A DNA stretch of 64,000 nt from Promethearchaeota archaeon (GTDB lineage: Archaea; Asgardarchaeota; Lokiarchaeia; Sigyniarchaeales; SOKP01): contig JAHPZA010000006.1 of the NCBI GenBank assembly GCA_019058445.1, forward strand, positions 1,024,001-1,088,000. Reading direction: 5' to 3'. Numbering within the stretch: position 1 is the first letter of the stretch; each line of letters opens with the position of its first letter. The position numbers were made by a program, and so were the translations under genes. The notes beneath the pieces were generated by a model. It ran no database searches. It had not been told where the DNA came from and worked only from the letters and a program-made list of their open reading frames with translations. Positions 22,196-35,917 of the stretch are shown one piece after another.

Positions 22196-22327
22196 CGCAA
22201 CGGGAGGGAATTTCGTATTCCAAGAAAATTGGAACAATACTTCGAACCCCCGAGTGCGAAGCACACCAGCTTTCTGGGAGAGAATTCCACTCCAAGCTGG
22301 CGCCGTACCAGGCTAGGCTACCGTTGC
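22196..22327 (-). tRNA. tRNA-Ser(GGA) with two introns (37/38, 18 nt, 22272-22289; 59/60, 31 nt, 22210-22240)
   Basis: Acceptor GCAACGG/CCGTTGC with G73; D-arm GCCTAGCCTGGTACGGC; anticodon stem CCAGC/GCTGG; anticodon at 22291-22293; long variable arm; BHB geometry at both introns. Confidence 0.9.
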
Positions 22328-22381
22328 TTAATAAATAAAAAAATAAAAATATTGTTAACTTATAGAAGTTGTTCTATAAAG

Positions 22382-22654
22382 TTATTTTAGAGGGATTGAA
22401 ACAGTTTGATTCATTATTTTAGCTTTTTTAGCTTTTTTAATGGCCGCTTCAACTGCGCTATGGTCAGCACCTTTTTGAATTTCTATTACGTCTGTCGTTG
22501 GTTCGATGTGTTTATAGTTAACTCTTCTTCGTCGAACAGTTAATCCATCGACAAGCAAATAATTTTTATCAATCACGTCAACAATGACGCAGTAGCTTCC
22601 TGCTTCGCGTCCCATGGTTTTTATACATATCCTTCCTATATCGTAAATACTCAT
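22382..22654 (-). CDS. rpl14e: 50S ribosomal protein L14e
   Basis: IGRICIKTMGREAG..CVIVDVIDKN..LVDG..VRRRRVN.KHIEPT. Confidence 0.97.
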   Translation of the reverse strand: MSIYDIGRICIKTMGREAGSYCVIVDVIDKNYLLVDGLTVRRRRVNYKHIEPTTDVIEIQKGADHSAVEAAIKKAKKAKIMNQTVSIPLK

Positions 22655-22783
22655 AATTTGTCACCAAATTATTTTTAGTGAATTTATCCTTGCTGAATTT
22701 TTTAAAGAGTCCAGTAAAGATAAATGAAATATGTTAGATTAAAGAAATTAAACTAAAAATAAATTTTTTGTGATTTTCACAAA

Positions 22784-23332
22784 TTAGCTTTTTTTCAAAT
22801 TTTTATCTTTGATGATTTGAAGGAGATTTTGTAAAACTTGTTCAATAGTAAGTCCTTCAGTGCCTAGAATGATATCATGAATTTCTTTAATATTTGTAAA
22901 ATTACTTAAATCAATATTATAGAGAAGTTTAAATCGTTCTAGCTCAGATGTTTCCCTTAAAATGGTTTCTTTCATGCTTTCTTCAAATGGTCTCTCATCC
23001 CTTGAAGCGATTCTTTTCACTCGGGTTTCAAGTGGGCATGTAAGGTGTATTCTAAGATCTGCGATACCCTTAAGTAAATGTCCGCTCAATTGACTATCAA
23101 TAATTACATTTCCTTCTTTTGCAACTTCTACCACTTTATCATCTAAGGCGTTATCAATTTCAGGGTGATCTTCAACGTATTTAGTAAACTCTTCTAAGGT
23201 CATATCCATTTCGATTGCCAGATCTCGAAAAGCTTGGCCAGTTGAGTAGTATTTAATCCCAAGGGCTTCAGCAATTAATTTAGCTATAGTGGATTTACCA
23301 GTACCATGTAGACCAGAAATGCTTAAAATCAT
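22784..23332 (-). CDS. cmk: Cytidylate kinase (archaeal type)
   Basis: ISGLHGTGKST P-loop, STGQAFR; lies between L34e and L14e. Confidence 0.93.
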   Translation of the reverse strand: MILSISGLHGTGKSTIAKLIAEALGIKYYSTGQAFRDLAIEMDMTLEEFTKYVEDHPEIDNALDDKVVEVAKEGNVIIDSQLSGHLLKGIADLRIHLTCPLETRVKRIASRDERPFEESMKETILRETSELERFKLLYNIDLSNFTNIKEIHDIILGTEGLTIEQVLQNLLQIIKDKNLKKS

Positions 23333-23444
23333 AGGTTTAATTAATCCTTTATTGATTAAAATTATGATGATAAATATTAAATAAAAACATATAGAATCTA
23401 GTAAAATGTAATGAATTAACAGTGATATAACAAGTTTTAAAATC

Positions 23445-23714
23445 TTATTGATTCCAAATCGATTCTCTTATTAAGTTTCTAAGGCATATCGCACAATAAC
23501 GTCCACTTTCTAATCTGTTAGGTCTTCGAGACGCCTTGTTAGTGTTCCTTATTTTAGCAGGTCTAAGTCTTGGGATTGAAGAAATGGGTTTTTTACATAT
23601 AGCACAATGGCTTTTTTTAGGTTTTCTTCTGGAATAATGTGTATTATTGATATTCCCTGGCGTTCTTATTGTTTTTCGTGCTTGAGAATGGGATCTTAAA
23701 CCTGGTCGCGGCAT
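23445..23714 (-). CDS. rpl34e: 50S ribosomal protein L34e
   Basis: MPRPGLRS, RTPG, CAICK...RRPNR...CAIC. Confidence 0.96.
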   Translation of the reverse strand: MPRPGLRSHSQARKTIRTPGNINNTHYSRRKPKKSHCAICKKPISSIPRLRPAKIRNTNKASRRPNRLESGRYCAICLRNLIRESIWNQ

Positions 23715-23815
23715 AAAAATTTATACTCCATGAGGTAAACTTAATTTTAATAGAATTGTTTGCTAAAGTAATATTTCTTAAAAGAATAAACAAAATATTA
23801 ATTTTATGATTTTAC

Positions 23816-24457
23816 CTACGGATTTAGATTTAACTTGCGTTGAAATTCTTTGAAGATGTGATATAGTTTATCTCCTATAATCTCTCTAAATTTTTTATTT
23901 TTGATAAGATTTTGGGGATTTTTAATGACATGATCATAAATTTCATTAATTTCAAATCGGATCGTATCTAAACCCGGAAATCTCTTTATATTACCTTTTA
24001 ATTCTTTAAACAGTTTTAAAATTAAGTCCCTACTAGTAAGCCCTTCCAATTTTAGGGCATCCATTAAAGTAATAAAAGAAGTGGTTATTTCTGAAGTGAT
24101 TCCGGGTAATTCTAATATTGAATCCCTCAGATGATTATTAAAATGAGAGATTTTTTCACTCCCAATCTCAAGAATCTCTTCTGAAGAACTAAAATCATAG
24201 ATTTCATTAAATATTTTAACTGCTCTGTTATATTGCTCTATAAAGTTCATATAGATTAATACTTCAGAGAGGGAGATCTTTTTTTCATTAAAATATAACT
24301 TGATTTTTAAGAGCCCTTTCATTGCGTTTTTGATGGCTTTTCTAAAGAAATTCTCATTTATAATACCTTCTAGATATTTTTCATAGAGGTTATTTATTGA
24401 AGTGACTAATGCATATAATTCAGATTCTATATCAGAAAGTTTCGTATTATTGTCCAT
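23816..24457 (-). CDS. vps28: Vps28-like ESCRT-I subunit (eukaryotic signature protein)
   Basis: N-terminal SELYALVTSINNLYEKYLEG resembles Vps28 AELYAII..LE.LEKAY; C-terminal EITTSFITLMDALKL resembles Vps28 FIT.MD.L.L; 213 aa. Confidence 0.8.
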   Translation of the reverse strand: MDNNTKLSDIESELYALVTSINNLYEKYLEGIINENFFRKAIKNAMKGLLKIKLYFNEKKISLSEVLIYMNFIEQYNRAVKIFNEIYDFSSSEEILEIGSEKISHFNNHLRDSILELPGITSEITTSFITLMDALKLEGLTSRDLILKLFKELKGNIKRFPGLDTIRFEINEIYDHVIKNPQNLIKNKKFREIIGDKLYHIFKEFQRKLNLNP

Positions 24458-24526
24458 TAATATAAGTAGTATTTTGAGATTAAAATAACAAAATATTATT
24501 TGAATATTAAGATGAAAAAGGCAAGT

Positions 24527-25480
24527 TTATATTCCAAACAAAGTAGGCCGTAAAAAGTAGAAAAATATAGAAACAATGATTCCAATCGCTAAGGACGATA
24601 CTAATACTCGAGTTGTAGATGAGTTGCTGAGTTCTCTAATACCTATTGTCATTAAAATAGGCACCCATACTGCAATTGTAATTGCATCTATCACATCTAA
24701 CACCGCCCACACAGGGGAACTGAACATCGCATTGAAAATCGAGTCATCAAACTCAGAACTATCGATATCTACCTCTACCGTAGGAAATGCGACTAGAATT
24801 ATTAGGATTTTTATAAGATTTACTAATAAGAATGGCGCAAAAGCACACATGAGCATTTTATATTTATATGCCGCTTGTTTTTGTAATAACGTGCCACTTT
24901 TATAGATACTAAATGGACTCATATCTGATTCTTTGTATTTCTCTTTTTTCTCTTTTCCAAATCGATCTTCTAATTTTTCTGAAAACCCGACAGCATAATT
25001 AGCTGCGAAAGTAAATAGCCAGATTAGAATGATATAAAAAACTGCTTGAAATAGAAAACCAAATATTAAGAAAGTTAAAAAAGTGGCAAAACCATAAGGA
25101 AATAATAAAGGTGAATAGGGATTAATGGGGTCTCCATCAATAGAAACGAATCTAAAATGAGAGAGGAAAGCCAATCCCATAAGTCCCCAAAGGATAGAGT
25201 TGAAAAGTAATATATAATAGCCTGGAGCTCGAGACCTCTTATGATTAATATCCCAGAAGGCTCGAGATGGATCTATGAAAAGGTATATGATATTTAAATA
25301 CCATGGATTGGGACTGACCCATTCGCTTTCAATTCTTTGGAAAATCTTTTGAAAATATGGAAGATTTTCGATTTTTTCAATTCTTAATCTTTTTCCACAG
25401 AAGGAACATGAAAATGCTTCAGCTCTATTTTCATTACCGCATCGAGGACATTTTATTAAGCTTTCAGCCATTTTTATCAA
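24527..25480 (-). CDS. Zinc-ribbon plus Yip1-domain membrane protein
   Basis: N-terminal CPRCG..N...CSFCG; FIDPSRAFWDI then about 5 TM helices ending IGIRELSNSSTTR (Yip1 pattern); likely start ATG 25471. Confidence 0.75.
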   Translation of the reverse strand: MIKMAESLIKCPRCGNENRAEAFSCSFCGKRLRIEKIENLPYFQKIFQRIESEWVSPNPWYLNIIYLFIDPSRAFWDINHKRSRAPGYYILLFNSILWGLMGLAFLSHFRFVSIDGDPINPYSPLLFPYGFATFLTFLIFGFLFQAVFYIILIWLFTFAANYAVGFSEKLEDRFGKEKKEKYKESDMSPFSIYKSGTLLQKQAAYKYKMLMCAFAPFLLVNLIKILIILVAFPTVEVDIDSSEFDDSIFNAMFSSPVWAVLDVIDAITIAVWVPILMTIGIRELSNSSTTRVLVSSLAIGIIVSIFFYFLRPTLFGI

Positions 25481-25599
25481 TCCTATTTAAATCCAATAAC
25501 TAGTTTTCTAGTTTTTTAGTAATAATAACATAACACAGAATTTATTTAAAAATTGGTATTAGTTTTCAATTTTTAACATAATAATAATTCAAGATAAAC

Positions 25600-26667
25600 T
25601 TAAAAATATTCTATTATAAAGCCATTTTTTTCTTTTACAATTCTATATTCTCGATTGGCAAATAATTGAATTAATTCTAAATTAGTTCTTGTATGGCTAG
25701 TAATTTCTAGTACCTTTATACTTGAAGGCGCTCCGATATAGGCCATTAACGGGATTAGTTGATCACTGAGATAATTATCGACAGGAATATTGTGTTGAAT
25801 ATATTTTACAATTTCATTTGCAGCCATACCACCGAGTTTTTCTGAAGTTAATCCTTTTTCACCTAATAGAGTTCCTGTAGAGATTATGGCCCCTGTATCA
25901 GATTCTGACCACAAGGAGAGCCCAATTCCAGGACTTGTTGAATTTACCCAGGAATATTTGATGTCTGTATCAATCCTTAATTTTCTTTTAAGTGATTGAT
26001 TTATTGCTTTTCTAATCCTTACAGCAATATTATCTCTGTTACGCCTTAATTGGTTGGTAATTATTATTTCACCTCGGATAAGATCTACATCCCCTAATTC
26101 AGTTAAATTCAAAGCTTTTAATTTTATATTTGGAGGTTTTATCCTACATTTAACTCGAGCTCCGCCTTTCGGATACCACCCGTGTTTTTGAATATCGATA
26201 TCAATCATAAGCCCAGCTTTAGCAAAAATGGGATAAGTGACTTTTTGAAGATAATTCAAACTAGGTGCCCATTTTCCAAAAGTTCCACCTCCACTAAGAG
26301 ATATTTCAATTTGCCCAGTCTCTCTTAAACATAAGCTTGCTATTTGGATGGGTTGAAGTAGCAAACCTATACTGGCAGCTGTGCTAATATTTAAATGAAT
26401 ATCTCTCTTCGCATTTTTTTTAGGAATAAATGACAATTCGGTAGTGCCTACTTTACAATTACTTAGAGTACTATTGGTTAATTCTGATAACGTTTCTAGT
26501 CCCAGGAGATGCTGTAATCGTAATCCTGGTTTAGGACGATTCGCGCGTATATTCTTGATTTTGATGGGGATATTGAATAAAATAGAACATCCTGCAGATA
26601 ATCGCAATATGGCTCCCCCTCCCTCACCAAAAGCACCATCAATTTCTAAAAATGTCGTATCATTCAT
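25600..26667 (-). CDS. rtcA: RNA 3'-terminal phosphate cyclase
   Basis: IDGAFGEGGGAILR, IRANRPKPGLRLQH, GWYPKGG, DQLIP, catalytic His in TSHTRTN. Confidence 0.95.
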   Translation of the reverse strand: MNDTTFLEIDGAFGEGGGAILRLSAGCSILFNIPIKIKNIRANRPKPGLRLQHLLGLETLSELTNSTLSNCKVGTTELSFIPKKNAKRDIHLNISTAASIGLLLQPIQIASLCLRETGQIEISLSGGGTFGKWAPSLNYLQKVTYPIFAKAGLMIDIDIQKHGWYPKGGARVKCRIKPPNIKLKALNLTELGDVDLIRGEIIITNQLRRNRDNIAVRIRKAINQSLKRKLRIDTDIKYSWVNSTSPGIGLSLWSESDTGAIISTGTLLGEKGLTSEKLGGMAANEIVKYIQHNIPVDNYLSDQLIPLMAYIGAPSSIKVLEITSHTRTNLELIQLFANREYRIVKEKNGFIIEYF

Positions 26668-27809
26668 GCCTCTTCCCGGATTTCATATAACGTTTGTATT
26701 CTTTCAATGCCCTTAAATTTTATCATCAAATTAGCGACTTCTTTTGGAACTAAACTGGTCCAATTTTTCTTTTCTTTACTAATTAGTTTTCTTACATTAC
26801 TGGCATTATATTTCTTTTTAAATATTCCCAATTTTTTGCCAACTAAATAACCTTTATTTTGAAATAATTGTCGTACCCAATCGCTATTTGAATAAATCAC
26901 ATCAAAATCTCCTACTATCGAAACCACATGATCTACCCATTTTTGAGCATTAAATATATCAGGAATTTCATAGATTTTATATCTATTTTTAGAAATTTTT
27001 CTTTTTTCAAAAGCACTGGTAATGAATTTGATTCGTTCTTCGCTGGTGAAAGGATCATTTTTGGTTTTTGATAACTGTGAACTACCTATTCCTATCTTCA
27101 GTTTTTTATGCGATTCTAAAATCCTATATATTACATAGATATGTCCGTGGTGTAAGGGCTGAAATCGCCCTATAAATAAGGCAATATCTTGAGAACCATT
27201 CATTTTTAAATTTTGATTATTTTTAAAAAGAGAAATAATGTCTTTTTGTATTAAATAATTCCAGATCTCTTTTGAATAATCTACAGAATTTTTATTACTA
27301 AGTATGTTTTTAAGCTCTTTCTTGGAATAAAATCTACTTCCATTAACTTCCAACTCTTTAGAATCAGGATTCAATTTCACACCATAATCAACAAGTCCCA
27401 AAAAAATATAAGCTATCTCCGTAGTAAGATTATCTTGTTCTGTACTTAATTTATGAAAAATGATATTTTTTATGCTATTTGGGGTGATGCCAAATTCCTC
27501 TTCGAGCTCCCTAATTGCATTTTCTTTTATATCATTAAGTTCCAAATTTGGACTGTAAATTACATGTCCTGAGGCAGAATCCGTAAAATATTCGGGATAA
27601 CTCTTTTTGTTTTTTCCCCTTTTTTGGACGAGATACATGATTTCATTGTCCGGTGTAATTGCCATTATAAAGAAACGTATTATCAAATGACTTATTTGCC
27701 TTTTATGTGCTTCAGATCTTTCTAATGGAAAAATATATTTCGATATCTGCCCTGAATGTAAATATTTAATATTATTATCCTCAATGCAGGCTAAAATCTC
27801 TTTTTCCAT
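26664..27809 (-). CDS. Nudix (IDI-like) plus nicotinamide-nucleotide adenylyltransferase fusion
   Basis: N-terminal QKRG..K..YP...SASGH...AIRELEEEFGI; C-terminal FIGRFQPLHHGH, NDPFT..ER, NASNVR. Confidence 0.88.
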   Translation of the reverse strand: MEKEILACIEDNNIKYLHSGQISKYIFPLERSEAHKRQISHLIIRFFIMAITPDNEIMYLVQKRGKNKKSYPEYFTDSASGHVIYSPNLELNDIKENAIRELEEEFGITPNSIKNIIFHKLSTEQDNLTTEIAYIFLGLVDYGVKLNPDSKELEVNGSRFYSKKELKNILSNKNSVDYSKEIWNYLIQKDIISLFKNNQNLKMNGSQDIALFIGRFQPLHHGHIYVIYRILESHKKLKIGIGSSQLSKTKNDPFTSEERIKFITSAFEKRKISKNRYKIYEIPDIFNAQKWVDHVVSIVGDFDVIYSNSDWVRQLFQNKGYLVGKKLGIFKKKYNASNVRKLISKEKKNWTSLVPKEVANLMIKFKGIERIQTLYEIREEA

Positions 27810-27834
27810 TTTTTATTCCTCTATCCTTTAAACC

Positions 27835-28689
27835 TTACTTTTCTAAAATTATAGTAATGAGATCTCCTAATTTAAAACCTATTTGCTCTGCTGCATTTCC
27901 TTGATTAATAGCAATTTCGAGATACCCACTCGATCCTTTCATAAATAAAAATGACCCCTTGGGCACTTTAGTGAAGTGAGAAGAATAGGTCCCTTCATAC
28001 TCTTGATTATTAAGTGTCATTTTAAGGGTATCTCCTTGCTTGATTTTGAGGGATGTTCCAGTAATAGTCTCATTTTCCAGAGGAATATTCGTAGTCCCAT
28101 TCCCAAAAGAATCTATATACTGTATAGTACAATTAATTAGCTTTTTATCTTCTAAAACCTCAAATAAAATGGTATAGTCTATAAAATTATCTGGATCGAA
28201 TGGTTCTCCAAAATTTCTCAAAGGAACGCCATTTACAATATGAGCTCCTACAGGTGCCATTATATCCCTTCCATGAAACGTATTGGAAACCGGCTTAATA
28301 AAGTAATTCTCATTAGTAACTATTACACATTCTTTAATATCAGTTTTGTTAAATAAATTAAAAAAGATTCCATTGTTGGGACCCACAAAGAAAAAATTTG
28401 ATGCAGTTTCAAAAGCTAAAATCTCTCTTGAACTTCCAACTCCGGGATCTACAACTATAATAAACACAGTATATTCTGGAAAATATTTATACGTTGCCTT
28501 TATTAAATATGACGCTTCTAAAATGGAATAGGAAGAGATATTATGGGAGATATCAATTATTTTAATATTGGGATTGATTTTCAGTATAACTCCTTTCATA
28601 CTCGCAATATAATGCTGACCTAAGGGACCAAAATCTGTTAAAAGAGCAACAACATCTTGATATAATTCAGTCACGATCTCATCAAACAC
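27835..28689 (-). CDS. SAM hydroxide adenosyltransferase / chlorinase-fluorinase family (DUF62)
   Basis: LLTDFG, DISH, VVDPGVGS.R, GPNNG, STFHGRDIMAP-like, YIDSFGN, LEIAINQG motifs. Confidence 0.93.
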   Translation of the reverse strand: MFDEIVTELYQDVVALLTDFGPLGQHYIASMKGVILKINPNIKIIDISHNISSYSILEASYLIKATYKYFPEYTVFIIVVDPGVGSSREILAFETASNFFFVGPNNGIFFNLFNKTDIKECVIVTNENYFIKPVSNTFHGRDIMAPVGAHIVNGVPLRNFGEPFDPDNFIDYTILFEVLEDKKLINCTIQYIDSFGNGTTNIPLENETITGTSLKIKQGDTLKMTLNNQEYEGTYSSHFTKVPKGSFLFMKGSSGYLEIAINQGNAAEQIGFKLGDLITIILEK

Positions 28690-28731
28690 AATTAATTAAA
28701 TTTAGAAATAAAAAAGTGATAGGTTAGAAAT

Positions 28732-29631
28732 TTACTTTTTTGTTTTCATTCGTTCTTCAAATAAATATATGTCTTGGAGAGCTTTGGATTTTAAGCTATA
28801 TTCCTCCTCTTTCTCAGGTTGCATCAATTCCTTTGAGAGTTCTGCTGCTCGAAGATAAAATATATATGCAGAATGAAAATTCTCATTTCTGAGTGCGCTT
28901 CTTGCTTCTTTTACTATATTGTCTCGTTTTTTCGTTAAATCTGGAATATTAAAAGATAATTTGGCCCTCTCATTTAATGATTTCGCAAGTTCTTTTTCTA
29001 AAAGTTCTTCCGCAGCTTCTGCTGCTTTTTTATACTGTTTTGAAGCTTTTTCATAATCCAAGTCCTTTAAAGCATCTTCCGCAGATTGATAATAATAAGT
29101 AATTTTCGTATGGTCATTATTTTCAATTTTCTCTAATAATTCTTGAGCAATTCTTCTTTCTTTTTTACCTCCGCTTAGCATTTCTTTAGTTCGGTTAATT
29201 ATACTTTCTTTTAGGGCTTCAGGGTCTAGAATATCTGTCAATGTTTCCAAAAACTCATGGTAAATTTCCTTTAATTTGGGTTGAAATTCTTCTTTAGTCA
29301 TATCAAGCAGGTTAATCTGTTCTAAAGCTACCGCAGTATTCTTTAAAGGTGTTCTTAGTTTTTCGGGATCATCACTTTCACTTAATAATATACCAACTAT
29401 AAGTCCAAGAGCTTTTCGACTTAATTTTCCTTTGAATTTATGAATATATGAAACTAAATGATGATCTTTTAATTTTAATATCGTATATTCATTTTTTGAA
29501 TGGTCTAAATTTAGTCTCAAGTATAAATCGCTTGTAATGTTAAAGTCTGATGTACTTTCCTTAAAGTAATAACCTAACACATTATATTCAGATTCACTAT
29601 TGAGTAATATTACAAAACATCCAACTGGCAT
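28732..29631 (-). CDS. Hypothetical protein, possibly an N-terminal longin/uDENN-like domain with C-terminal TPR/MIT-like helices
   Basis: Beta/alpha N-terminal pattern (GCFVILL..VLGYY..LYLRL..LVSY..LIVGILL..DPEKLR) followed by A..A....YEKA...Y..AAE helical repeats; fold is inference. Confidence 0.6.
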   Translation of the reverse strand: MPVGCFVILLNSESEYNVLGYYFKESTSDFNITSDLYLRLNLDHSKNEYTILKLKDHHLVSYIHKFKGKLSRKALGLIVGILLSESDDPEKLRTPLKNTAVALEQINLLDMTKEEFQPKLKEIYHEFLETLTDILDPEALKESIINRTKEMLSGGKKERRIAQELLEKIENNDHTKITYYYQSAEDALKDLDYEKASKQYKKAAEAAEELLEKELAKSLNERAKLSFNIPDLTKKRDNIVKEARSALRNENFHSAYIFYLRAAELSKELMQPEKEEEYSLKSKALQDIYLFEERMKTKK

Positions 29632-29699
29632 TTAAAATATCACCTTGAATAGTAATACGATCTACAAATATATTAAGAGTTAAAAAGAAAATATTAATG

Positions 29700-30119
29700 T
29701 TATTTTCTACTTAATAAAATACGATTAGTTTCCTCTCTTATAGAACGGATAATAGAAAGTAATTGAGCATAATATAGATTGTTAGCAACTGATTTTTCTC
29801 CTTCTCGAATTTTATCAATTGCTTCCTTTTCTTGCTTTAAAATTGCCTCGACCGATTTTTTAGTCCAGAGTTCTTCGATTTTTTCACCCACTTCTTTCGA
29901 AAGCTCATTTATCGATTTGGATGATTGCACTCTAAATTGTTTTAGGATTTCCACTATGAGTCGTATGTTCTCCGTTAAGCTTACTATTTCTTCGCTAAAT
30001 CTTAGGCTCATCGAGTTAATGGAGGTATTCATGTTCTGTAGCTGTGCAATAGTTCCATCTAAAGATTGAGTAATTGCGTTTATCTTCTGTATCATCTCTT
30101 CCAATAACACCTCGGCCAT
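29700..30119 (-). CDS. Hypothetical coiled-coil protein
   Basis: Heptad-rich helical ORF, SD GGAGGTGA upstream, tightly coupled to the upstream gene. Confidence 0.75.
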   Translation of the reverse strand: MAEVLLEEMIQKINAITQSLDGTIAQLQNMNTSINSMSLRFSEEIVSLTENIRLIVEILKQFRVQSSKSINELSKEVGEKIEELWTKKSVEAILKQEKEAIDKIREGEKSVANNLYYAQLLSIIRSIREETNRILLSRK

Positions 30120-30121
30120 TT

Positions 30122-30562
30122 TCAGCCACTCACCTCCTCCTTTTCTTCGGTCTCTACTTGAGTAAGAGACTCTTTCATCTGTTTTACAGAGTCAATAGCC
30201 TCAGAGAGTAATAAATTTACAGTGTCTTGATTTAATACCTCCTGTGCTAATTTTTCAAAATTTTGGAGATTTTTTAGTATATTTTCAAAAGAATCAAGAG
30301 CAAGTCCTTTCTTGACCTTTTCCAACTCGTGAGTAACCCCTTCTCCTATTTCCTTGATCGCATCAATATGAATTGTTTGAGTCACATTTATCTCATTTGA
30401 AAAATCTGATATTCTTTCATTCAAATTAGATATTTTAGTCTCTATATTCTGATTTAATTCATCTAAGGAGGTTTTTAAAGCCTGAATGGCTTGTCCTAAT
30501 TGTGCGATTCGCTGATAAATAGATTGAAGCAAGTCTTGAAGCATTTCAGCCGTTGTAAACAC
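30122..30562 (-). CDS. Hypothetical coiled-coil protein (possible ACG start at 30553)
   Basis: Heptad-rich helical ORF similar in size and N-terminus to its downstream neighbour. Confidence 0.75.
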   Translation of the reverse strand: MFTTAEMLQDLLQSIYQRIAQLGQAIQALKTSLDELNQNIETKISNLNERISDFSNEINVTQTIHIDAIKEIGEGVTHELEKVKKGLALDSFENILKNLQNFEKLAQEVLNQDTVNLLLSEAIDSVKQMKESLTQVETEEKEEVSG

Positions 30563-30754
30563 CTTTTTTTATTCTATTTAGAGATAATTTTAAGCTATAG
30601 TATTAATCTAATTTAAAACACTAATGTTTTTATTAAATTTAAATGTATCTTGACTCTAAATATAAAAAAATTTTTATTTTTTTTATCCTTTTGAGTTTTA
30701 AAGATATAATTAATTATATCATTTATTGAATATAATTAAGCTTACAATAGATTA

Positions 30755-30917
30755 GCTCCCGTAGCTCAGCTTGGTTAAAGCGCGGGTCTTATAAGGCCCT
30801 ATAGACATACATAGAATTTAAAGAAGATTTTCGTGTCTATACTGCATAAACGCCCGAGATCGGGGGTTCGAATGGGTTTTTTGATTTAAAGAAACCCCGA
30901 TATTCCCCCCGGGAGCA
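30755..30917 (+). tRNA. tRNA-Ile(UAU) with two introns (anticodon loop 37/38 or 38/39, about 57 nt; 59/60, 31 nt, 30873-30903)
   Basis: Acceptor GCTCCCG/CGGGAGC with A73; anticodon stem CGGGT/GCCCG; loop CT-TAT-AA with TAT at 30790-30792; T-stem GGGGG/CCCCC; intron hairpins TATAGACA/TGTCTATA and GGGTTT/AAACCC. Confidence 0.88.
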
Positions 30918-30971
30918 GTTATTATTCCTATAATTTGAATAAATATTTTTTTTTTGGTTACTTTAGTGATT

Positions 30972-31475
30972 TTATGTTTTAAGATGCTTTTTAAAAATGA
31001 CTTTGGGGTTATTTATTTTATAATAATTAAGGGTTACTGGAATTCCATCAATTTCTCCATCTCCGGGTTCAATTATGAATCCTAACCTAACATGAAATTT
31101 AATTGAATCTTTATTTATAGGAGATGTAGCTGCATGAATAACTGTACGATTGTTGAGATTACATAGATTAAAAAACTTCTTATAAAGAGAGAGGCCTAGA
31201 CCCTTTTTTCGGAAATGGGGATGAATTCCTATAAAATGAATATATGCTTCATTTGAAAAATATTGTGAAAAAAAACCAATTAAAAATCCAACAATTTCTC
31301 CACCTTTCTCTGCGATAAAAATAGTATCTCTAAAATGAATGAAAAATATTTTTAGAATTAAGCTAGTTAAATCACGGCCATTCCACCATAATGGTTGTAC
31401 TTTAATTATTTTTTCAAAATCCAATGGATTTCCATTACGAATGGTAATATCATTAAGATTTGAATCTTGATTCAT
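30972..31475 (-). CDS. GNAT family N-acetyltransferase
   Basis: AYIHFIGIHPHFRKKGLG motif A; N..SIKFH..LGF. Confidence 0.9.
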   Translation of the reverse strand: MNQDSNLNDITIRNGNPLDFEKIIKVQPLWWNGRDLTSLILKIFFIHFRDTIFIAEKGGEIVGFLIGFFSQYFSNEAYIHFIGIHPHFRKKGLGLSLYKKFFNLCNLNNRTVIHAATSPINKDSIKFHVRLGFIIEPGDGEIDGIPVTLNYYKINNPKVIFKKHLKT

Positions 31476-31564
31476 AAATTAAATAAAATACTGTGAAATT
31501 AGTAAGTTTTCATTTCGTAATTGGACGAAAATTAAAACTTTAGAATAGGATAATTGAGAGGTAT

Positions 31565-32245
31565 TTATTTTTCCAAATTCACAGAAATTAAATTCAGAAG
31601 CCATTTTTTAATTTGCATTAAATTCTTTAATAAACCGGGTTGAAAATTTTCAGGGAAGTTTTTCTCTTGTTCTAAATTCTGAGTGGTAGTCATCCATTTA
31701 TTCAATGCTAATTGGACTAAACTGGCGCCTTCTGCTTCCATGAACATTGGGACTACGGCAGCAGATTCTCTTGCGTCACCTATAGCGAAATAGATTTTTC
31801 TATTAATTCCTTTAAGCATAACTAAATTGGCACATTCATCAATTTTACGCTCTACTAAAATTGATTTTAGAATCTGAGTTTTTTGATCTTTTTCTTTCGC
31901 AGAATAAATTAATTTTCTTGTTTCAAGGGCTGGTTTAATCTCGTTTATTAATTTATCTCCGGTATTTCCCTCGGCAAAATATTTCCTTAATACAATATGA
32001 TCATCTAACGCTTCAATGGAAATAAATTTTTTAGTATTTGAATAAAGGATTGCTTTTGATCCCGCCTTATTTTCATCTTGAGATAATTTAATAAATATAT
32101 TTCTCATACTAACCGAATTATTTGTATGATAAGCTAATTCGAACATTTCTCTATGGTTTACGGGAGTATATTCCAGTGTAAATTCCGTTTTGGACCATTG
32201 GCTGATAATTGTGTTGTTATATTGGTCTAATAACCGATTTTCCAT
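31565..32245 (-). CDS. Hypothetical protein
   Basis: 226-aa ORF with normal codon usage; no family recognised. Confidence 0.7.
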   Translation of the reverse strand: MENRLLDQYNNTIISQWSKTEFTLEYTPVNHREMFELAYHTNNSVSMRNIFIKLSQDENKAGSKAILYSNTKKFISIEALDDHIVLRKYFAEGNTGDKLINEIKPALETRKLIYSAKEKDQKTQILKSILVERKIDECANLVMLKGINRKIYFAIGDARESAAVVPMFMEAEGASLVQLALNKWMTTTQNLEQEKNFPENFQPGLLKNLMQIKKWLLNLISVNLEK

Positions 32246-32436
32246 AATAAAAAACTCTTTTGAAGTGTATTTCTTTACAATATTTTAGAACAGATTTTAA
32301 AATTAAGATTGTTGTTGAATAAATTCTAATAATTATTATCTAAACAATAATATTTATACTTTTTAATTATTGTTATTTTTAATTTCATTATTGGAAAGAT
32401 GGTAATTATATTTTCATATAAAGTATTATGACATAA

Positions 32437-33792
32437 CTATAATACAACTTGCTTGTAAGCTTTTTCAAACCGTTCAACTGCAAAAGATACATCTTCTTGC
32501 TTAGCTCCAATCGCAGCATTCATCACAATATAGGGTGTTGGGTAATATTTACAACAAGTTCCAAAAATAGATTCGCCAGAACTGTAGACTCTTGGTCCTG
32601 TTACTCTTAAATTGTATAAAGCACCTCCAAGTGCGGTTAATTGCTCTTTTTTTAGGTTATCAAGAGAAACTGCTACTGCCACAGGATTAAATATTTCTAA
32701 TACTCTTTCATTAATGGTTTTTGCGGTTTCTCTTAATTTTTCTTCTAGAAGGTTACGATTAAATTGTTGCTGTTCAATTAGTTTTTGATATCCATTGATT
32801 CCTAAAGATAGCATAGAAATTAAAAAATTGACCACAGGAGTAGCAGATGCTCGACCCGCATATGCCTGACTGATTTTTGTTATCACTTCTTCCCGAGGTG
32901 AGGCAATGACTGCACCACCGACTGGTGTGAGGAAATTTTTATCAGTAGATTGAATGATTACATCAACTCTTCCCGCATCTATTGCAGATCGTATTAATTT
33001 CATCCATTCCGGGCTTTGTACTCCGTATGCATTAATTATGATATGCAGGAGTTTTTTGTCTTTGGCAAATTTGCTAATTTCTTTAATATCATCATGTTCC
33101 CGTGGAGGGAAGAAACTGGTTAAAGAGATAATTGCGAAACATTCTGAATCTAAGTTTTCCTTAATATCTTCTATGGGAATCCTTACCGCATCGCCAAATA
33201 CTTTTCCTTCAATTATTTTTGGCGTAAATCCCATTAAAGCAATAGCTTTTAAAAGCGATTTATGGTCTACTTGTGGTACTAATATTTTAGTCTTCTTAGA
33301 GCGAAATTCTGGTTTTAACGCTCCTAAAGATAAGGCTAAAGACATCCCAGTACATAAGGGGATGACTATTACCTTACTAATATTAGGCAATCCAAAGTTT
33401 TTCAGAAAATTTCGAGCTAAATAATTGGTAAGTTCATACATTATGGACCCTCCAGGTGCTTTTGGCTGGGGTGCCGTTAAAAATCCGCTTCTGCCTACTC
33501 CATGACAAAACCCCGCGCTAGTTTTAAGATGTAGTCTAGACGCAATTCGAGCTTCTCTTTCCCCAACTCTACTTGCTTGAGAATCTTTATCAGTGTCCAT
33601 GTTTGAAAGCGTTTGAAGTAAGAATTCAATTTGATCATCGCTCCAAGGTTCTTTAGGAACGTTTTTCTGTTCGAATAAAATCTTTATTGGTTTTAAGAAC
33701 TCATTCAGTACTAACTGCCCTCTTTTGAGCATATTTTCAGGAATTTGAGTTTGACTAAAATAATCTATAATTTTACTATAATCTACCAACAT
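32437..33792 (-). CDS. spcS: O-phosphoseryl-tRNA(Sec) selenium transferase (SepSecS)
   Basis: MDTDKD...RVGEREAR, GFCHGVGRSG.L..PQPKAPG, DHKS, INAYG, QSTDKNFLTPVGG (PLP Lys), YAGRAS. Confidence 0.97.
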   Translation of the reverse strand: MLVDYSKIIDYFSQTQIPENMLKRGQLVLNEFLKPIKILFEQKNVPKEPWSDDQIEFLLQTLSNMDTDKDSQASRVGEREARIASRLHLKTSAGFCHGVGRSGFLTAPQPKAPGGSIMYELTNYLARNFLKNFGLPNISKVIVIPLCTGMSLALSLGALKPEFRSKKTKILVPQVDHKSLLKAIALMGFTPKIIEGKVFGDAVRIPIEDIKENLDSECFAIISLTSFFPPREHDDIKEISKFAKDKKLLHIIINAYGVQSPEWMKLIRSAIDAGRVDVIIQSTDKNFLTPVGGAVIASPREEVITKISQAYAGRASATPVVNFLISMLSLGINGYQKLIEQQQFNRNLLEEKLRETAKTINERVLEIFNPVAVAVSLDNLKKEQLTALGGALYNLRVTGPRVYSSGESIFGTCCKYYPTPYIVMNAAIGAKQEDVSFAVERFEKAYKQVVL

Positions 33793-33945
33793 ATATCACG
33801 ATATTTAGCGAGTAGTATTCGATAATCTTATTTTATATCAAATACAAATTATAAAGTCTTTATTTTAAATAATTCTTTTACTATTTTTTTAAAAAAATCA
33901 ATTTATATTTTAAATTACCATTGGGAATTAAATATGACAATGCGG

Positions 33946-35658
33946 CTATAGATGTCGTTTTAGCATTGCTCCCTCGTGAAATTGGGTGGCATTTTGATGC
34001 CACGCCACAAGCACACCTTCTTTTATTCTTGGTTTAGGAGGTACAAACTCTTTAAGTCTTTGCGCTATTTCAGATTCATCTAATTTTACATCCACTCTTT
34101 TATTTTTCAAACTTATGGTGATGCTATCCCCATCCTTTACAGCAGCCAATGGACCTCCTACGTACGCTTCAGGAGAGACGTATCCTACATAAAGAGCACC
34201 TTCTGTTGCTCCAGAGAATCTACTGTCTGCTACAACTGCGACATCATTTAGTCCTAAAGCATCAAGCAATAAGACAATTTTAAAGTTTTCAGAAAATCCT
34301 GGACCACCTCTTGGTCCTTGATATCGAATAACCATAACATCTCCGGATTGAACTTTTCCTTGTAAAATCCCCATTAAAGCATTTATTTGAGTATCGAAGC
34401 ATTTGGCAGAACCAGTAAATTCTGCTAATTTGGATCCAACTACAGTATGTCGGAGTAAGCTTCCCTTAGGGGCGAGATTTCCTTTTAATACTACAATGCC
34501 GCCAGTCGGAAATATGGGATCTTCTAAGGATCTGATAATTTGAGAATCTTTAACTTGAACATTATGTAAATTGTCTGATAACTCTACTCCTTTCACGGTA
34601 AGACAATTTAGATTTAGAACTGGTTTAAGTCTTGCCATCAGACTCATAACTCCTCCGGCGTGATGAAAATCCACCATGGAATAAGGTCCACTAGGGCGTA
34701 ATGGACTTATGTAGGGAGTAGTTTCGCTTATTTGTTGAATAGTATCTACAGTGAAATCAATATTCATGCTCTTCGCAAGTGAAAGCAAGTGTAAAATACC
34801 GTTTGTAGAGCCAGAAACTGCCATGATACATCGGAATGCATTAGAAATTGATTGTTTAGTCATAAGTTTCTTCAACTTCAATTTTGACTTTACCATATCC
34901 ATAATAACATGACCAGTCTCTCTTGATTGGCGAATTTTCTCCATATCATTTCCCGGAGTAGTCGAAACACCAGGGAGGCATAGACCCATGGCTTCTGTGG
35001 CTATCATGGTTGTATTTGCTGTAGTAAGTTCTGGACATGCCCCACAACCTGTAATCCAACATGATTCCATGTTATTGATTTCTTCAAAGAATTCCTCCTC
35101 TTTTAATTCGCCAGAAAGTACCATATTGAGCCCTTTTATGATTATGTTAGTAGGAAACACAATTTCAGCGTCGCGCCATTTTCCTGGAGTTGCAGGACCT
35201 CCTAAAAGGAAGATCGTGGGCAAATTTAGTCTTGCGGCACCTAACCACATACCAGGCACAATTTTATCGCATGTACCAATACAAACGAGACCGTCAGCTC
35301 TGTAATTCATCATCTGAATTTCAATTGAATCTGCGATTGCCTCTCTCTGCGGTAAATCATAGAGAAGGGTAATATCATCCGTAGCTGGGCTTTTTGCATA
35401 CCCCGCACAAGGACCAATAACATTAAATTCAATAGGCGTACCGCCTGCCGCATACACACCTTCTTTTACATGTCTCGCAAGCTCTCGCAAATGAACATGA
35501 CCAACACCAGCATCTTGCATAGAATTAGCGATTGCAATTATTGGTTTTTCAAGATCCTTATCTATATATCCAGACGCTTTCCAATAAAATCTATGAGCTT
35601 CGATCTTATTTAATATCTTTTGAGCTTTTGAAATCTGTTCAGATGTAAGTTTAACCAT
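33946..35658 (-). CDS. ilvD: Dihydroxy-acid dehydratase (IlvD/Edd family)
   Basis: KPIIAIANS, CDKIVPG, GCGAC...TANT, GSTN..LHL, LKGNLAP, RYQGPRGGPG, SRFSGA, VSPEA motifs. Confidence 0.88.
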   Translation of the reverse strand: MVKLTSEQISKAQKILNKIEAHRFYWKASGYIDKDLEKPIIAIANSMQDAGVGHVHLRELARHVKEGVYAAGGTPIEFNVIGPCAGYAKSPATDDITLLYDLPQREAIADSIEIQMMNYRADGLVCIGTCDKIVPGMWLGAARLNLPTIFLLGGPATPGKWRDAEIVFPTNIIIKGLNMVLSGELKEEEFFEEINNMESCWITGCGACPELTTANTTMIATEAMGLCLPGVSTTPGNDMEKIRQSRETGHVIMDMVKSKLKLKKLMTKQSISNAFRCIMAVSGSTNGILHLLSLAKSMNIDFTVDTIQQISETTPYISPLRPSGPYSMVDFHHAGGVMSLMARLKPVLNLNCLTVKGVELSDNLHNVQVKDSQIIRSLEDPIFPTGGIVVLKGNLAPKGSLLRHTVVGSKLAEFTGSAKCFDTQINALMGILQGKVQSGDVMVIRYQGPRGGPGFSENFKIVLLLDALGLNDVAVVADSRFSGATEGALYVGYVSPEAYVGGPLAAVKDGDSITISLKNKRVDVKLDESEIAQRLKEFVPPKPRIKEGVLVAWHQNATQFHEGAMLKRHL

Positions 35659-35759
35659 GATAACATCTTAATCGTATTACTTTAAAAAATTATCGATAAT
35701 GTATCTTATCTTGATTATAAGCTCAAAAATTTCAGATAATCTCTTGAAGGATGAGAAAA

Positions 35760-35917
35760 TGGCGGCCCTCGAGGAGATTTTCAAAATGTAGGGTATTTCC
35801 CAACGATTATCGAACTCCTATCCCTCCGCAGGATAACTGGGTTTGAAGCCCAGCGTCAGAGACCACTTATCGTTGGAGATCGAACCGATCTCAATACAAT
35901 TCCGACCGTCAAGGGCC
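35760..35917 (-). tRNA. selC: tRNA-Sec(UCA), 9/4 fold, CCA encoded, with two introns (D-stem, 34 nt, 35867-35900; 59/60, 31 nt, 35778-35808)
   Basis: 9-bp acceptor GGCCCTTGA/TCGAGGGCC with G73 and CCA; after splicing a 7-bp D-stem GTCGGAG/CTCTGAC with TGGT loop; 6-bp anticodon stem and CT-TCA-AA loop (35844-35846); long variable arm; 4-bp T-stem. Confidence 0.95.

Follow-up and report, generated by a model that had tools for sequence, protein, structure and literature searches.

The 64-kb window analyzed here (C6:1024001-1088000) comes from the 4.6-Mb assembly of a Loki-type Asgard archaeon (31% GC, 92.6% complete); positions below are counted from its first nucleotide unless one of the contig labels C6, C7 or C9 stands before them. 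By hand dissection and our own cloverleaf search we found in it three GC-rich tRNA genes, for Ser(GGA), Ile(UAU) and Sec(UCA), each of which is interrupted in the T-loop, between positions 59 and 60, by an intron of exactly 31 nt. A first-pass annotation of this DNA had taken these to be all the tRNA genes of the window, and this holds as far as genome-wide scans and a GC-island scan tell, neither of which revealed a further one. Standard gene finders overlook every one of them: no tRNA of the window was called by ARAGORN, or by Rfam at its gathering score, and genome-wide the calls of ARAGORN (with introns allowed) and of the Rfam tRNA model were partial or wrong. The annotations of such genomes therefore under-report tRNAs.

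The three T-loop inserts share a common geometry. In each gene the two strands of the T stem lie 38 nt apart, which equals the 7-nt T-loop plus 31 nt, and the coordinates and lengths of the first-pass annotation proved exact. The T stem, with 5 bp in Ser, 5 bp in Ile and 4 bp in Sec, constitutes the outer helix of a bulge-helix-bulge (BHB) structure. The central helix is formed in all three by the exonic UUCG (positions 54-57) and intron bases -6 to -3, and the pairing of TTCG with CGAA, CGAT and TGAA, which the same annotation had put forward, fits all three genes: in Ser, CGAA yields 4/4 pairs; in Sec, TGAA likewise yields 4/4, one of them being G.U; and in Ile, CGAT gives a relaxed form of the helix. 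It is flanked by two 3-nt bulges, one comprising bases 58 and 59 with the first intron base and the other the last two intron bases with base 60, and in each a splice site is predicted after the second base. The inner helix is the hairpin of the intron itself, which in Ser and Ile directly adjoins the bulge with 4-6 bp; the Ile intron folds as a 9-bp hairpin of -10.3 kcal/mol (z -4.0). When the introns are removed, the cloverleaf solver returns a normal cloverleaf with a 7-nt T-loop for all three genes, and intron-free relatives display an uninterrupted T arm, as predicted. Thus, the combination of the two bulges and a 4-bp helix (relaxed in Ile), the flanking helices, a restored tRNA and an EndA gene in the same genome identifies the three inserts as BHB-type tRNA introns at the T-loop position 59/60 and as predicted EndA substrates.

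Coordinates of the tRNA genes, their introns and the other features discussed in the text. Positions without a contig label are those of the window; BHB scores are given in the order central helix, outer helix, inner helix.
Feature	Position	Strand	Description
Ser T-loop intron	22210..22240	-	31 nt, at 59/60; BHB score 4,5,4; hairpin with compensatory changes in relatives
Ile T-loop intron	30873..30903	+	31 nt, at 59/60 (a junction at 60/61 leaves an identical mature loop); BHB score 3,5,6
Sec T-loop intron	35778..35808	-	31 nt, at 59/60; BHB score 4,5,1; orthologues of 29-32 nt
tRNA-Ser(GGA)	22196..22327	-	132 nt, two introns; hand dissection, cloverleaf solver, orthologues in 17 relatives
tRNA-Ile(UAU)	30755..30917	+	163 nt, two intervening sequences; weak Rfam tRNA match; orthologues
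tRNA-Sec(UCA)	35760..35917	-	Two introns; hand dissection, orthologues, sub-threshold Rfam tRNA-Sec match (28.1 bits)
Ser canonical anticodon-loop intron	22272..22289	-	18 nt, at 37/38; BHB score 4,5,2
Ile anticodon-loop intervening sequence	~30794..30851	+	57 nt; junction ambiguous by 1-2 nt
Sec D-arm intron	35867..35900	-	34 nt; BHB score 4,2,3
SepSecS gene	32437..33792	-	Pfam PF05889, E 1.5e-113; 2 kb from the tRNA-Sec gene
tRNA-Met(CAU)	C7:14171-14338	+	64-nt T-loop intron; BHB score 4,5,3
tRNA-Gln	C6:1113257-1113389	-	Apparent C at position 33
tRNA-Gln	C9:655982-656074	-	Apparent C at position 33
tRNA-Thr(GGU)	C9:575644-575761	+	Odd T-loop; ~42-nt insert
Insert in a protein gene	C6:752444-752474	+	31 nt, outside the window; BHB score 4,3,5
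EndA gene	C9:770313-770918	+	202 aa; closest match the M. jannaschii enzyme, E 2.6e-24

To place these introns in a wider context, a census of the whole genome was conducted blind to the splicing motif: T-stem pairs were accepted at any spacing, an acceptor strand pairing upstream was then sought, and the 5′ part was resolved by a cloverleaf solver permitting inserts anywhere. This census, which is incomplete in that the two Gln tRNAs and genes whose T stem or acceptor stem is interrupted are only partly resolved, covers ~42 tRNA loci, only ~4 of which are intron-free, and contains 49 introns after curation. They have a median length of 30 nt; the band from 28 to 31 nt holds 30 of the 49, with representatives at sites in the D arm, the anticodon stem, the variable region and the T arm. 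The 14 T-arm introns measure 29, 30 (nine times), 31 (three times) and 64 nt, so that 13 of them lie within 29-31 nt, and they occupy the sites 53/54, 58/59, 59/60 and ~64/65 rather than 59/60 alone. In the D arm, the 18 solver calls (three curated additions are left out, and the lengths are uncertain by 1-2 nt from the assignment of the D-loop) gave 18, 24, 26, 27, 28, 29 (three times), 30 (four times), 31, 33, 34, 36, 45 and 69 nt. Like those of the D arm, the introns of the anticodon stem and the variable region peak at 29-30 nt; those of the anticodon loop are more broadly distributed (18-57 nt). A lineage-wide class of introns of about 30 nt that spans the arms of the tRNA is real.

The first-pass annotation had proposed a length regularity for introns at 59/60 and had named a broad distribution of T-loop intron lengths as the finding that would speak against it. 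No such breadth is seen and the T-arm introns are indeed narrow in length; the regularity, though, extends to other arms and is not tied to the T-loop. The only three 31-nt T-arm introns of the genome are the Ser, Ile and Sec introns of the window: were three of the 14 T-arm introns drawn at random, they would be of equal length in 23% of cases and all of 31 nt in 0.3%. The sole outlier among T-arm introns is the 64-nt T-loop intron of tRNA-Met(CAU), in which no nested 30-nt unit was found; more generally, we considered whether the long introns (45-75 nt) might be nested or tandem 30-nt units and looked for an inner BHB, and none was found. A seeming 13-nt T-loop intron of tRNA-Tyr was rejected as an artefact: the true T-loop of this gene reads CTCAAAT, and it is the variable region that carries the insert.

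These introns are united by a common build and not by sequence. Folded alone, a typical intron of 26-36 nt presents 1 unpaired nucleotide, a hairpin of 22-25 nt with a stem of 8-9 bp and a loop of 4-6 nt, and 6 unpaired nucleotides. Among the 34 introns in this size range, the 5′ tail is 1 nt in 18, the 3′ tail is 6 nt in 19 and the hairpin spans 22-25 nt in 20. This build matches what a BHB motif needs, namely 1 nt, an inner helix, 4 nt and 2 nt. Length correlates neither with GC content (rho -0.01 over a range of 0.16-0.53) nor with folding energy (rho -0.15 over a range of -0.6 to -12.1 kcal/mol); a simple stability floor, under which AT-rich hairpins must be long, is therefore disfavored. 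As the first-pass annotation had it, the internal sequences of the Ser, Ile and Sec introns differ: they are mutually unrelated, with all-against-all alignment performing no better than shuffles, and the best pairwise score among the 34 introns is 10, as against 9.6 ± 1.2 for shuffled sequences, 49% of which reach 10. A search of the genome for donor copies of any intron with blastn-short returned chance matches only (best 12-21 nt, E >= 0.001), and intron families of the Thermoproteales type, with at least 70-80% identity across isoacceptors, were not found in this genome. Accordingly, the suggestion that one ancestral intron spread between the genes receives no sequence support as far as recent spread is concerned, given similarity at the level of shuffles and the lack of genomic donors.

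Comparisons with relatives reveal how these introns evolve. The Ser T-loop intron is present in 13 genomes including this one, with lengths of 28 (three times), 29 (four times), 30, 31, 31, 32, 32 and 33 nt, and is absent in four others; a species with 96% BLAST identity over the Ser gene region has a 28-nt version, shortened by a 3-nt deletion. Its Sec counterpart measures 29-32 nt in 12 genomes and is absent in ~11, one of them congeneric, and that of Ile measures 30-31 nt in five genomes including this one and 22 nt in another family, and is absent in eight. With orthologues ranging over 28-33 nt (Ser), 29-32 nt (Sec) and 30-31 or 22 nt (Ile), and a 28-nt Ser version in a close species, the length of exactly 31 nt is not fixed, and a conserved 31-mer does not survive the comparison. 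Orthologous introns thus shift by a few bases in length while their sequences diverge, to the point of being hard to align between genera. At the same time, 7 of the 10 pairs of the Sec consensus fold (4 of the T stem and 6 of the intron hairpin) stay paired in one or more sequences although both partners have changed, and 4 of the 10 predicted pairs of the Ser consensus fold are kept through such changes. The survival of hairpin pairs through both-side changes indicates selection on structure.

Gain or loss on a shorter timescale is seen in tRNA-Arg(UCG) and tRNA-Asp(GUC), which were compared in five congeneric genomes. Two introns may occur in the Arg gene, one of 30 nt in the D-loop and the other of 29 nt on the 3′ side of the anticodon arm, each being present or absent at clean boundaries and in combinations that differ between species: one genome (G008) has both and the other congeneric genomes have one or the other. 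The same clean presence or absence within the genus holds for tRNA-Asp(GUC) and tRNA-Ile(GAU), and the Arg and Asp introns measure 29-31 nt. The Ile(GAU) intron of the present genome, which lies in the T-loop, has full-length BLAST matches in G003 and G007 but none in G005 or G008. Therefore, the introns by which close species differ are already of about 30 nt.

The three tRNA genes of the window carry further inserts (18 nt in Ser, 57 nt in Ile and 34 nt in Sec) that the first-pass annotation had not listed. The Ser gene, whose mature product is 82 nt plus the discriminator, has a canonical intron at 37/38, which recurs at the same site in relatives with lengths of 17-28 nt. In the Ile gene, the insert in the anticodon loop leaves a mature loop of CUUAUAC or CUUAUAA depending on the junction; no strict BHB was found there by the scoring used, and relatives have an insert of 47-59 nt in the same place. 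Among 41 genomes of the order that were searched, 16 showed an Ile tRNA with the anticodon UAU. In the D arm of the Sec gene, relatives have either an intron of 30-34 nt or none, with GGCCCTTGACGGTCGG joined directly to AGTGG. This gene is an archaeal-type tRNA-Sec by its UCA anticodon, 9-bp acceptor stem, 4-bp T stem, long variable arm and the SepSecS gene nearby. It also encodes its CCA end, as do several other genes with a T-arm intron (Asp, Ile-GAU and Met). Elsewhere in the genome, both tRNA-Gln genes apparently have C instead of U at position 33 (loops CCUUGAA and CCCUGAA), which holds unless a hidden intron shifts the register, and tRNA-Thr(GGU), which encodes its CCA, has AUCAUAG as an odd T-loop and carries ~42 inserted nucleotides following the acceptor strand.

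The size class probably also extends to some mRNAs of the lineage. Near the start of a gene for an iron-sulfur-type protein on C6 lies a BHB-shaped 31-nt hairpin insert of the common build, the removal of which opens the reading frame from 30 to 201 codons; this is a single case, judged by restoration of the frame. A quick check of rps26e for an intron of this kind did not recover one. Genome scans for a strict BHB with a hairpin, or for BHB inserts that reopen a frame, yielded no peak at 29-31 nt; here, ~25 chance matches per length and the 70-codon rule swamp a small set. As for the splicing machinery, the genome encodes the EndA listed in the table, and no second subunit was detected with Pfam PF01974, PF02778 or tblastn in this 92.6%-complete assembly. 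Asgard archaea have been assigned a two-subunit EndA with a loop that broadens its substrate range (PMC5829648).

We consider it likely that the three inserts are ordinary BHB introns at 59/60, that their matching lengths stem from the shared build of about 30 nt and that their agreement at exactly 31 nt is coincidental. The T stem would serve as the outer helix in the precursor; U54-U55-C56-G57 would pair with intron bases -6 to -3 as a 4-bp central helix; bases 58 and 59 with the first intron base would form one bulge and the last two intron bases with base 60 the other; and the hairpin within the intron would provide the inner helix. EndA would then cut both bulges and a ligase would join the exons, giving back the 7-nt T-loop. 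Nearly all non-canonical tRNA introns of the lineage would follow the plan of 1 nt, a hairpin of ~23 nt (8-9 bp with a 4-6-nt loop) and 6 nt, and this build would produce the sharp mode at 30 nt (28-31 nt) at every tRNA position. Selection on the hairpin would hold the size while the sequence turns over, and three neighbors of 31 nt would then be a coincidence inside a narrow distribution, reflecting neither a rule of the T-loop nor recent copying. Several points weigh against this account. A U.U mismatch leaves the central helix of Ile with only 3/4 pairs, and the inner helix of Sec adjoins its bulge weakly, with 1 bp, before a covarying hairpin follows. What the analysis establishes is the shape of the RNA, from which we infer the cutting and joining. 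The shared build describes the 30-nt norm rather than explaining it. The share of 29-31-nt introns is 13/14 in the T arm versus 13/35 at other sites, and a narrowing of length specific to the T arm may exist. Finally, every 31-nt T-arm intron of the genome falls inside one stretch of 14 kb. Lengths assigned at random among the T-arm introns would produce this with a post hoc probability of 0.003, which leaves some room for a local effect behind their clustering.

Alternative accounts differ in what they make of the equal lengths. That lengths are as broad here as in other archaea, and that three 31-mers met by pure chance, is very improbable: the introns were noticed on account of their equal lengths, so a post hoc effect has to be allowed for, but a band of 4 nt holds 30 of the 49 introns, whereas archaeal tRNA introns span 11-129 nt with medians (over all archaea, per isodecoder) mostly of 12-25 nt (PMC4090602), and other Asgard lineages have medians of 22-23 nt according to the available part of a 2026 preprint (10.64898/2026.10.13.758758). 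The first-pass annotation had offered a constraint imposed by the endonuclease or by a T-loop modification enzyme, that is, a molecular ruler tolerating only ~31 nt at 59/60. The T-arm introns being the tightest class, with 13 of 14 in 29-31 nt, and orthologues staying within 28-33 nt are what such a ruler has in its favor. Nevertheless, the D arm, the anticodon stem and the variable region show the identical mode; the 64-nt T-loop intron of tRNA-Met has a good BHB score; and Ser versions of 28 and 33 nt exist in close relatives, next to the 22-nt Ile intron in another family. A strict endonuclease ruler is contradicted by the 18-24-nt and 45-69-nt introns of the same genome, and a modification enzyme cannot account for equal lengths in other arms; moreover, the T-loop is paired with the intron in the precursor, so that such enzymes would not see their substrate. 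A ruler specific to the T-loop is thus unlikely.

A possibility that is compatible with the account preferred above, and that we entertain tentatively, is that the ~30-nt introns derive from one founder, or from one mechanism that inserts units of about 30 nt (by transposition, as has been proposed for Thermoproteales, or by reverse splicing of excised introns), followed by adaptation to the site and drift, with the hairpin keeping the length. One size and build across many tRNA positions, whatever the GC content or folding energy, would be expected from such an origin, and the 29-30-nt introns that come and go cleanly within the genus in Arg(UCG), Asp(GUC) and Ile(GAU), together with the like-built 31-nt insert inside a protein gene, point the same way. 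On the other hand, similarity among the introns does not rise above the shuffled control, donor-like matches in the genome are lacking, and the differences in presence may be losses instead of gains; in addition, the available part of the preprint places 1.5% of Asgard introns in cross-isotype families at 80% identity, as against 28% in Thermoproteales. Taken further, and equally tentatively, fixed-build hairpin mini-introns (1 nt, a 23-nt hairpin and 6 nt) might have colonized at least a dozen tRNA positions as well as protein genes, with fast turnover between congeners. Since size is independent of composition and stability, it would in that case be set either by a common generating mechanism, such as the re-insertion of excised introns, or by a size rule of the splicing machinery. 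If this were true, the lineage would offer a live system in which to study how introns spread among the archaea most closely related to eukaryotes.

Set against known systems, the three introns are further examples of a familiar type, of which one has been published: the 31-nt T-loop intron of the Lokiarchaeota tRNA-Sec reported in 2016 by Mariotti et al. (PMC4989117) agrees with that of the window in gene, T-loop position and length, and is its orthologue. That report concerns one intron in one tRNA; it mentions neither the D-arm intron nor the T-loop introns of Ser and Ile, nor a genome-wide norm of 30 nt. BHB introns at non-canonical sites, including those of the T arm, are well known from Thermoproteales and other Crenarchaeota (Sugahara 2008; Fujishima 2010; PMC4090602), which resemble the present case in the placing of BHB motifs away from the canonical position, in having genes with several introns each and in a dependence on an EndA of broad specificity. 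They differ in that the introns of Thermoproteales form families of similar sequence across tRNAs, attributed to transposition, whereas similarity here is at chance level; the median of 30 nt likewise departs from the archaeal medians cited above. Closer to home, the preprint, in its available part, describes heavily interrupted tRNA genes in Asgard archaea, namely Jordiarchaeia and Atabeyarchaeia, which share with this genome tRNA genes holding many introns, T-arm and D-arm hot spots, BHB motifs at the intron boundaries, gains that recur and a search for a copying route that found none; their medians are the 22-23 nt mentioned above, and a uniform 30-nt build is not reported in that part of the text. 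Indeed, no report of a uniform 30-nt build of tRNA introns was found in the literature searched.

The equal length of the three introns therefore points to a broader pattern, with one size and build at many tRNA positions and unrelated sequences, and should the making or the selection of the introns underlie this size class, it would be relevant to the spread of endonuclease-type introns in archaea. Such introns are not confined to tRNA genes: a BHB intron of the endonuclease type is found in the cbf5 pre-mRNA of Crenarchaeota, and at least one 31-nt insert of the common build, a putative intron, lies in a protein gene of this genome.

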